64,000 bases of DNA, taken from assembly GCF_056712565.1 (NCBI RefSeq), contig NZ_CM160072.1; one strand, written 5' to 3'. Positions 6,001 to 9,000 of this stretch are shown here, one piece after another; position 1 is the first letter of the stretch; the number at the start of each line of letters is the position of its first letter. The position numbers are program-made.

Positions 6001-9000
6001 GGTTGATGGCCACACGGGCGCAGGCGGTGTCCAGCACATCAATGGCTTTGTCCGGCAACTGACGCCCGGAGAGATAACGCTCGCTCAGTGTCGCAGCGGC
6101 CTGCAAGGCGTCATCATCAATCAGCACGCCGTGAGATTGTTCATAGACCGCCGACAAACCGCGCAGAATAATGGTGGCTTCGGCAGCGTTGGGTTCGCTG
6201 ACCTTCACTAACTGGAAGCGGCGCGACAAAGCTGCATCTTTCTCGAAATATTTTTTGTACTCGCTCCAGGTGGTGGCGGCGATGGTTTTCAGCTCGCCGC
6301 GCGCCAGCGCTGGTTTGAGCAGGTTGGATATATCCAGCCCGCCCTGCTGGTTGCCCGCGCCAATCAGGGTATGTGCTTCGTCGATAAACAGAATGACCGG
6401 CACCGGGGAGAAAATGACCTCCGCCATCAGCCCCTTGAAGCGTTTTTCAAACTCACCTTTCACCGACGCACCGGCCTGCAATGCGCCCAGGTCAAGGGTC
6501 ATGATATCGGTGTTTTTCAGCTTGTCCGGCACCTGGCCTGCCACGATGCGCAGCGCCAGCCCTTCAATCAGCGCGCTTTTACCCACGCCTGCTTCGCCCA
6601 CTACCACCGGATTGTTTTTACGGCGGCGGCAGAGAATGTCGATCATCAGGTCGATTTCATAGTTGCGGCACAGTACCGGGTCAAGCCTGCCGTTACGGGC
6701 GTCTGCGGTCATGTTTTTGGCGTAGCGGGCAAGCAGGGTGTCGCCGGTTTCCGTTGCGCGGGGCGTTTGCCCGCCAGCCAGATCCACGGATTCGGCGGAT
6801 TCTTTTGTCCATGCTGCGAAATCCTGCTGTAACTGGTCGCGGTTTATGGCCGTCAGCAGACGGGCAGCAGCGGGTGGAATATAGCGCAGCGGTGAATGCA
6901 GCAGAGTAAGCAGCAGGACGCCGCTGCGCAGTTCGCTGTGCTGCATCTGGGCTGAGGCCAGCAGCCATGACTCCTTGAGCCATTCGATCAGCATCGGGGA
7001 GAAGCTGGGATAGCCTTCGGCGGAACGTCCACCGGGATAACTCTCCACGGTCAGCGCCTGGCGTAAATCCTCCGCACTGATGCCTGTGCGTTCGGCAATC
7101 ACCCTTACGTCGTTGCGCGGGATTGCCAGCATCTGTAACAGCACATGGGCAACGGTGATCTCACTGGCCTGCTGGCTCATACACTCCGAGGCAGCCATTT
7201 CCAGCGCCTGTTTTGCAAAGGGGTTAAGCCGCTTTACGAGCGTGGCTAAATCAATCTGGATCATAAGATGTCCTTATCGGAGTAATTTATTGAGCTGATG
7301 CAGAATATCCTGTGTCTGGCTGTCCAGACGCAGCAGATAAAACAGATAAAATACGGTCAGCACAACAAGACCGCCGCACAGTACATGCTTGATGGTCAGT
7401 CGTCGGATTAACTGATAACGCCCACCCTGTATGTTGTTCTTCTGATGAAGTAGCGGAAATGGCGCGTCACCGCGCAGTTTGTGCAGGGCATGGTGCAGGC
7501 GCTGGTAGATCCGCTCAAATTCATCCTGTTGCTGAATGGCAACCTTGTAGCGCCCGCGAAAGCCGAGCGAAAAACAGAGGTATAAAAATTCCAGCAGATC
7601 CTGGTAACGTACCGGCTCCCGGATCAGGCGTTCGAGCAGGATAAACACTTTCTCGCCGCCCCAGGCTTCGTTATGAAAATGAACCAGCAGCGACTGTTTG
7701 ATCCATTCGTTTTTGTTGGACCAGCCGTTGCCCAGCGCCGCTTCATCAATAAACGTGCAGAGAATGTAACGGAACGAAACAATGACGCCCGGTTCGTATC
7801 CCTGTTCCTGGAGTAGTTGCTCTACGGCCTGGACATCGGTTACTACCTGGGTAAACAGATGTTCCGGCATGGCCTGACTGTTCATAGTGGACAGTCAGGC
7901 CATGCCGAGCAACGGCGTGGCGGCGTCAATCATTGGATTCAGGCTGTTGCCGCGAAGGGCGAGACGGTACTGGCGTCCTGGTGTTCCGCTCTCCGGCTCC
8001 ACGGGAAAAACCGACGCTTCACTCATATCGCTCATTCACTTATCCCCTTATAGCCCAGAGCTGGAGGTTCAGATCGGGGAAGCTGCCGGAGATATGCAGC
8101 GCCAGTGCGCCCGCTTTTATCACGTCCTGCCAGGCCGGGGTGCCTTTTTCCAGTTCGAAGTAAACATAACCTTCGTGGTATGGCAACTGACGTGGCGCAG
8201 CGGTAAGCGTGTGCAGCGGAATACCCGGCACCTGCACGCTGACCACGCTGCGGATTTTGTCGGTAGCGGCCACTTTCGACTGCTGGATGAACTGGCGTTG
8301 TACCTGGTCGTAGGGCATCCTGGCGCGCACTGCCAGTACCAGCTTGCAGGACTGCAACAATGTGGGATCGTTGATGGTGGCGATCCAGGTCCCCTCTGAA
8401 AAGAACAACGGCAGATTCTGCGCACGCGGCACCAGTACGGTATTGAGCGCGCGCCGCAGTTCCGGGATCACGGTTCTGGTGAAGGTCGCGGTAAGATCCC
8501 GGTGATTATACGGCTCCACGGTGCAGGGCAGGCGATTACCTTCGGTAAAGGTCATCAGTTCTCCCAGCAGCCCCACCAGATCCCGGTAGAAGGCTTCCGG
8601 ATGCAGCGTGTGCAGTTGGGAACGATGCGTGAACTGCATTTGATAGCGGTTAAGCATCTGCAACATCATAAATTCGGCCACATCGGCGATCCCGCTCTGT
8701 TCAGGCGAACCAATGCGCCCGGCCAGGTCAGCGGCGCGGGTGGCAAGCAGTCCCTGCACCTCGCCGGAGAATGCCCCGAGCAACCCGCTGACACGGACGG
8801 CCTGAATGGTGGGAATAAAGGTGTTGTCCAGCACCAGCGCGCCGGTGGCATTTTTATTGAGGATACGGCACAGGGGGAGAGTCACCATCGCGCTGAGATC
8901 ATCTGCGCCGCTGACTATCCTGGGGATCAACTGCCCCAGACCGACTGGCTGTTCGTCGCCTTCGTCAGTGTGAAAATCACGGACGCGGGTATGGGTGAGG

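Follow-up and report, generated by a model that had tools for sequence, protein, structure and literature searches.

The window, as we call the whole 64-kb stretch of DNA analysed here, is part of an E. coli chromosome and carries the T6SS cluster that lies next to aspV. In this cluster the genes follow one another in the order tssM-tssA-vasI-tssH-tssL-tssK-tssJ-tagH-tssG-F-E-C-B, then hcp, vgrG and an effector, with the core genes on the minus strand, and the wider order around the locus is dnaQ-aspV-T6SS-fadE. The gene under study, tssL (icmH/dotU; 7274..8035, minus strand), is flanked by tssK (8040..9386, minus strand), intact and directly upstream, and by tssH (clpV; 4505..7264, minus strand), intact and directly downstream. 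The remaining T6SS genes of the window are intact too, and match those of functional-type relatives. The tssL gene itself is a pseudogene over its full extent: PGAP labels the same allele as a pseudogene with an 'internal stop' in A13, MS20657, N17, N39, N47 and N64, which are the six inspected of the seven complete genomes found to carry it.

The original prediction had named the gene as tssL, and domain and structure matches bear this out. The intact orthologue has 251 aa by PGAP, with the Pfam DotU domain (PF09850) over residues 31-232, and aligns at residues 17-250 with V. cholerae TssL (PDB 4v3i, E = 7e-57). The gene of the window has what identifies a TssL/DotU protein, namely the DotU domain, the C-terminal membrane anchor and synteny with tssK, tssH and tssM, but it does not have the uninterrupted frame of a functional tssL. 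An in-frame TGA (7897-7895, minus strand) splits it into a 5′ fragment ORF of 46 codons counted from the first ATG (7895..8035, minus strand) and a 3′ fragment ORF of 203 aa (7274..7885, minus strand) that encodes the remainder of the DotU domain together with the C-terminal membrane anchor. That both ORFs share one frame had been correctly proposed; the first ATG stands 4 nt after the tssK stop codon (TAA, 8042-8040). The new TGA is codon 47 of tssL, or codon 44 if counted from the RefSeq/PGAP start, which is the second ATG (8026). It truncates TssL after residue 46 (residue 43 when numbered from the PGAP start), just past the conserved first-helix motif of the DotU domain. Indeed, the 5′ fragment ends in the new stop and encodes NPMIDAATPLLGM, a motif (N..IDAATPL.G) that proved to be conserved with V. 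cholerae TssL when its conservation was checked, and the stop comes right behind it. Before the ATG of the 3′ fragment ORF (7885) no Shine-Dalgarno-like sequence was found.

The palindrome and its intact counterpart

The stop codon lies inside a perfect inverted repeat (7865..7907), with arms at 7865-7881 and 7891-7907 and a loop at 7882-7890. Both the span of this repeat and the nonsense codon within it had been recognised beforehand, whereas the arms, given as 16 bp around an 11-nt loop, are in fact 17 bp long when counted as perfect pairs, with 9 nt between them. The same repeat can also be read with a 3-nt loop and 20-nt arms that are 95% complementary. Among the perfect hairpins of the 64-kb window it is the longest, about 7e-5 of this kind being expected at random, and no inverted repeat as long was found elsewhere within the window. 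The mutant hairpin folds at -22.6 kcal/mol as DNA (z = -7.8) and at -37.3 kcal/mol as RNA (z = -7.7), values that were matched by no shuffle, while the ancestral (intact) sequence folds as DNA at only -10.6 kcal/mol (z = -1.6). The TGA and the downstream ATG are both inside the repeat, with the ATG 9 nt after the TGA and in the hairpin loop. The mirror peptides M-N/D-S-Q-A-M-P that had been pointed out on both strands are present, and are a trivial consequence of the palindrome.

Known elements were also considered for this site. An Rfam search of the hairpin returned no known family, only sub-threshold miRNA-hairpin noise, and neither a T-run terminator nor a promoter was found at the hairpin site; a known RNA element, a SECIS or a terminator was rejected on these grounds. 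A recoding signal (SECIS or programmed read-through) was rejected because the UGA is within the 5′ arm and not upstream of the stem, and selenocysteine recoding because orthologues have Val-Met-Arg at the site, whereas Cys or Sec would be required.

Three diverged lineages of tssL, represented by the intact orthologues of E. coli 536, ECNB21-M121 and CFSAN061771, served as references for an alignment with the window. On the coding strand, the intact alleles of all three lineages read GGCATGG-TGATGCGT-CTGTCCAC(T/C)ATGAACAG-(T/C)CAGG-CCATGCC and those of the window's own type read GGCATGG-TGATGCGT-CTGTCCACTATGAACAG-TCAGG-CCATGCC. The window allele reads GGCATGG-CCTGA-CTGTCCACTATGAACAG-TCAGG-CCATGCC, where CTGTCCACTATGAACAG has the form CTGT...ACAG. 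The ancestral sequence is an inverted repeat with imperfect pairing, made of an 8-bp outer stem and a 7-bp inner stem (with one mismatch), and the bulge between these stems is asymmetric, its two sides being 8 nt and 5 nt long. This bulge is abolished by the mutation. At 7895..7899 the window has TCAGG on the plus strand (CCTGA on the coding strand, containing the TGA) where the ancestral segment is ACGCATCA on the plus strand (TGATGCGT on the coding strand), so that 8 bases have become 5, with a net loss of 3 nt and no insertion. The new CCTGA is the exact reverse complement of the TCAGG that occupies the mirror position in the opposite arm, and this putative donor or template segment (7873..7877; CCTGA on the plus strand, TCAGG on the coding strand) is the same in intact and mutant alleles. 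As a result of the replacement, codons GTG-ATG-CGT (Val-Met-Arg) have become GCC-TGA, and the downstream frame is kept.

This alignment runs counter to the idea that tssL contains some 24 extra nt, the allele being 3 nt shorter than its intact orthologues. In place of the short palindromic insertion that had been suggested, it points to 8 ancestral bases replaced by 5 that were probably templated from the opposite arm. The intact state is judged ancestral because it is the form seen in 336 of the 343 complete genomes of the lineage and in both sister lineages. In the intact orthologous loci tssL is one continuous ORF; the same stop accompanied by a separate small gene upstream, which would have counted against the original prediction, is not what they contain. 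Only two identity classes, 92.9% and 98.8%, were observed among the 343 complete genomes, that is, two states with no intermediates.

The replacement of 8 nt by 5 nt bears what appears to be the signature of quasipalindrome 'correction' by replication template switching, as in the Ripley model. PMC7202029 describes this mechanism, with reference to Ripley 1982, Viswanathan et al. 2000 and Dutra & Lovett 2006, as one in which the nascent strand comes off its template and anneals to the arm already copied, from which a few bases are taken before it goes back. At tssL, the nascent strand would unpair from its template while copying the second arm and would re-pair, via the inner stem (ACAG/CTGT, 6 of 7 pairs), with the already copied first arm. 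Five nucleotides (TCAGG, plus strand) would then be copied from the first arm, and the return to the proper template would be guided by the 8-nt outer stem CCATGCCG. The expected outcome of such an event is the exchange of 8 nt for 5 nt, a repeat made perfect with 17-bp arms, an unchanged frame and the conversion of GTG-ATG-CGT to GCC-TGA. The tssL change combines the features by which quasipalindrome mutations are recognised: an ancestral imperfect repeat, an exact complement of the opposite arm, a gain in complementarity and a single step without intermediates.

The orientation of the locus bears on the direction of the event. The plus strand of the window is oriented as in the records that place the locus at ~0.25 Mb, between dnaQ-aspV and fadE, a position that we take to be in the right replichore on the E. 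coli map, and its GC skew is positive. It is only in synthesis of the plus strand that the donor arm (7873-7877) is copied first and the changed arm (7895-7899) second. Because the aspV locus has this position in the right replichore, the changed arm would be the one copied second by the leading strand. This direction agrees with the leading-strand bias reported for such events by Rosche et al. 1997 and others, in the terms in which PMC7202029 cites them (Rosche 1997 being cited there as 'leading strand specific'). We consider it highly probable that the stop codon and the perfect palindrome come from one quasipalindrome template-switch event, with a T6SS that is most likely silent and a change that probably arose more than once.

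Carriers of the allele and number of origins

Assemblies with the mutant allele are recognisable by the sequence GGCATGGCCTGACTGTCC. Among the 343 complete genomes with this tssL lineage, seven carry it: A13, MS20657, N17, N24, N39, N47 and N64. The exact 46-aa fragment was found on 165 public contigs (NCBI, ENA and Logan), and in a large protein collection the exact 203-aa fragment of the window was present on 31 contigs and its Ala-59 variant on 129, with intact TssL proteins on at least 1000. ST95-like strains and a clone from CSF or blood are found among the carriers, all six CSF or blood isolates of the latter having the allele. A template switch would explain why the same tssL 'internal stop' occurs in ~2% of the complete E. 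coli genomes with this T6SS lineage.

When haplotypes from public contigs are included, the local haplotypes that bear the mutant allele number at least six. Between the window and the intact genomes Z0117EC0054 and APEC E18055 (O2:K1:H7), the differences in 32 kb are the palindrome change and 2 SNPs. Similarly, A13 differs from the intact SCU-485 by the palindrome change and 1 SNP over 19.7 kb, and has five further intact clone-mates. Comparison of the window with the seven mutant complete genomes yields 166-172 differing sites in 24 kb, of which the nearest is the SNP at 7852 (Thr/Ala-59 of TssL), located 42 nt from the mutated segment and splitting the mutant alleles into two haplotype classes. 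MS20657 and the N-series form one clone, with 1-18 differences per 40 kb. All four allele combinations of the change and SNP 7852 exist, as do all four of the change and a SNP 932 nt upstream. The four combinations with SNP 7852 therefore imply either repeated mutation or a recombination that ended within the 42-nt interval. This interval is the only one that is informative for recurrence versus recombination, the haplotypes being too similar elsewhere. Around the site, carrier haplotypes do not differ from one another for 0.4-3 kb; A13 and MS20657 are identical for 3.3 kb, and the window, L013 and L015 have 3.7-5.7 kb in common.

At least two independent origins of the allele are likely from these haplotypes, because the closest relatives of the window and of A13 are intact and because a SNP only 42 nt away separates the mutant classes. 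The presence of an identical change on several unrelated strain backgrounds suggests a natural mutation hotspot, and quasipalindromes are documented recurrent hotspots in E. coli (PMC7202029).

The strongest competing explanation is a single template-switch event whose product was then passed on to further E. coli backgrounds through short-patch homologous recombination, with no hotspot involved. The identity of carrier haplotypes over several hundred to several thousand bases, including the tracts of 3.3 kb and 3.7-5.7 kb mentioned above, is what such a spread would leave behind, and for most pairs of haplotypes a short patch could have carried the allele. Furthermore, two predictions of a strong symmetric hotspot failed. 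The first is a parallel correction in the sister M121-type lineage, which would convert VMR to AW without creating a stop: it was seen in 0 of ~200 complete genomes, and the corrected M121-type protein, looked up on one common background, had no exact match. The second is the correction in the opposite direction (MNSQAM to MNRRITM), for which none of the 343 complete genomes fell in the expected identity class and which was not found as an exact protein on the two commonest backgrounds. The absence of the opposite-direction correction fits a strand bias, and selection could also account for it. Despite these points we regard a single origin as unlikely, if still a serious contender. For it to hold, recombination must have ended at least once within the 42 nt that separate the change from SNP 7852, and several more patches must have been transferred without any linked marker. 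It must also accommodate the intact clone-mates of both the window and A13, otherwise near-identical to them over 20-32 kb, and it sets aside the known recurrence of mutation at E. coli quasipalindromes (PMC7202029).

We put forward a wider proposal in tentative form. The tssL quasipalindrome may act as a one-way switch, that is, as a hotspot at which the aspV-linked T6SS is silenced again and again, and beyond reversal, in lineages of extraintestinal pathogenic E. coli (ST95-like strains and the CSF/blood clone); loss of the system may be favoured in the host, and the rate of the event may be raised by template-switch stimulants such as fluoroquinolones. If recurrence is true, the allele offers a population-scale test bed for strand bias, for drug stimulation of template switching (PMC7202029) and for host selection on the T6SS. 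It also calls for caution in phylogenetics, as an identical complex allele is not necessarily identical by descent.

Consequence for the secretion system

TssL is indispensable to the TssJLM membrane complex and makes contacts with TssK, TssE and TssM (PMC6730261; bioRxiv 10.1101/2025.02.08.637259). Because the stop truncates this required component, the T6SS of the window would be left without a functional TssL membrane-complex subunit and is hence most likely silent. The prediction extends to the other carriers, ST95-like strains and the CSF/blood clone included, which should be unable to assemble this T6SS. Further breaks in T6SS genes were recorded in a set made up of carrier lineages alone: tagH is split in L024, tssJ in L025, tssF in L028, tssK in L036 and vasL in L013, L016 and L021, and tssA is shortened in MS20657. 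Such additional breaks in carriers would be as expected after inactivation.

It is improbable that the split gene still functions, be it by read-through of the TGA-C or through a 203-aa TssL produced by reinitiation, possibly tuned by the RNA hairpin. A TGA followed by C is a weak stop in E. coli. The kept frame, this C and the ATG that follows 9 nt downstream in the hairpin loop would all be compatible with a functional split, as would the persistence of an allele-bearing clone in six CSF or blood isolates and the integrity of every other T6SS gene of the window relative to functional-type relatives. However, the ATG comes without a Shine-Dalgarno sequence, and the product of reinitiation would lack residues 1-48, which include the motif N..IDAATPL.G and the first 18 positions of the DotU model. 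The product of read-through, for its part, would have A-W in place of V-M-R. Moreover, the hairpin, which would have to do the tuning, matches no known RNA family, and several carrier lineages have the additional T6SS gene breaks that are expected once function has been lost. A silent T6SS remains the reading that we prefer.

Very improbable, and rejected here, is the sequencing or assembly artefact at the hairpin that the original prediction had allowed for. In vitro polymerase template switching at hairpins is possible during library amplification, but the identical allele is present in the 7 complete genomes, which come from at least three separate sources (A13, MS20657 and the N-series), on the ~165 contigs, assembled independently from dozens of sequencing runs (NCBI, ENA, Logan), and in all six isolates of one clone. 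Least probable of all is that tssL was hit by a mobile element of small size and palindromic form (REP- or MITE-like) or by a random complex indel of unrelated origin: this would suit the first impression of extra palindromic sequence, but an insertion or mobile element was rejected as the allele falls 3 nt short of the intact gene and ancestral coding sequence accounts for 38 of the 43 bases of the palindrome, and a random 5-mer would be the reverse complement of the opposite bulge with a probability of only ~1e-3, recurrence not yet counted.

Relation to known mutations

With a quasipalindrome template switch as the favoured origin of the allele, the closest kind of event, as far as such cases are described in PMC7202029 and the works that it cites, is found in the quasipalindrome mutations of laboratory E. 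coli, that is, the thyA hotspot (Viswanathan et al. 2000; Dutra & Lovett 2006), the rpsL hotspots (Yoshiyama & Maki) and the lacZ QP5/QP6 reporters. Like these, the tssL change starts from an ancestral imperfect repeat and consists of a multi-base change that exactly complements the other arm and renders the repeat perfect. It also has short homologies flanking the switch and the return, an apparent leading-strand direction and apparent recurrence. Unlike these, it occurs in natural isolates and was not selected in the laboratory, and its outcome is a nonsense codon in a secretion-system gene; compared with the single-base hotspot in thyA, the replacement is larger and asymmetric (8 nt to 5 nt). 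The class is further marked by strand bias and by stimulation in xonA xseA mutants (which affect exonucleases I and VII) and by AZT or fluoroquinolones; of these, the tssL sequence bears on strand bias, through its inferred direction.

Template-switch clusters have also been identified by comparative genomics (Loytynoja & Goldman 2017, PMC5453318; Monttinen & Loytynoja 2022, PMC8794818). There, as in tssL, a set of substitutions and an indel amount to one inverted local copy, and a long perfect stem is created in one step. Those clusters were described in human and primate genomes and in RNA genes, whereas the tssL event destroys a bacterial protein-coding gene and is found on several haplotypes.

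Loss of the T6SS by lesions in its core genes has precedents of its own. Point mutations in core genes led to T6SS loss during experimental evolution of EAEC (bioRxiv 10.1101/2025.02.08.637259), and the interrupted tssM of Citrobacter rodentium is rescued by transcriptional frameshifting (PMC4256274), while no rescue mechanism is evident for tssL. What these cases share with tssL is that one small lesion in the membrane complex or baseplate is expected to abolish assembly, and such lesions are frequent in natural strains. The tssL lesion differs from them in that it would be driven by structure in its origin and in that it appears to recur as an identical allele.

In the literature that we searched, no earlier description of the tssL allele was found, and RefSeq simply annotates a pseudogene. 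Judged by its signature, the allele adds a new natural case to a mutational mechanism already known, and provides a clean example of a class of mutations met mainly in laboratory reporters. By aligners and annotators, the single event would be counted as three gaps and several substitutions.

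tssA and other T6SS genes on chromosomes with the mutant tssL allele

In the clone in which the mutant tssL allele is fixed, the annotation of tssA is not the same in every member: it runs from 24170 to 25612 in the loci of N17, N39, N47 and N64, but ends at 25507 in that of MS20657 (again from 24170), making the gene about 105 nt shorter. A difference private to MS20657, at position 25505 of its locus, lies in the same place as this new end of tssA. The short tssA of MS20657 may hence be a second lesion of the T6SS, gained after the stop codon in tssL. Apart from the replacement of 8 nt by 5 in the palindrome, positions 2920 and 30885 of the window are its sole differences over 32 kb from Z0117EC0054, the near-identical relative with an intact tssL; the first of them falls within tssA.

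On several public contigs bearing the mutant tssL allele, a second T6SS gene was called as two pieces. The gene is tagH in L024 (6748-7976), tssJ in L025 (7973-8497), tssF in L028 (2672-4505), tssK in L036 (150-1496), and vasL in L013, L016 and L021. As read from gene calls, these additional splits are consistent with the decay of a cluster that would have been silenced.

State of tssL in other strains and sources of the clone

The reference chromosome of E. coli 536 (4,938,920 nt) carries an intact tssL allele. In CFSAN061771, which belongs to a T6SS lineage of 80% identity (O157-like strains), the icmH/tssL gene (1444-2204 of its locus) is annotated as 'frameshifted', so tssL has been inactivated in different ways in further lineages as well.

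Every member of the clone with the mutant allele fixed, MS20657 and the four N-series isolates among them, was obtained from blood or cerebrospinal fluid. An association between loss of the T6SS and invasive disease is no more than an observation, made on six genomes.

Hairpins, composition and mosaic structure of the window

Besides the tssL palindrome, the window has only two perfect hairpins whose arms reach 13 bp or more, and in both the arms are 13 bp long: one at 17741-17772, with a 6-nt loop, and the other at 62895-62929, with a 9-nt loop.

The region 16001-24000, which contains remnants of ISAs1 and an hcp-vgrG-DUF2169-PAAR effector that more recent annotations call Cpe1/Cpi1, has a low G+C content (0.435) and a very strong GC skew (+0.19), and is clearly of a different origin from the T6SS core. 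While positions 1-32000 are nearly identical to ST95-like genomes, the top complete-genome matches of 36000-64000 reach only about 98% identity and are broken into several pieces. In its right half the window is a mosaic, with pepD, proA, frsA, rtcB and many hypothetical genes, as well as the Flag-2 gene flhA in some relatives; the G+C content goes down to 0.385-0.41 in 48001-64000.
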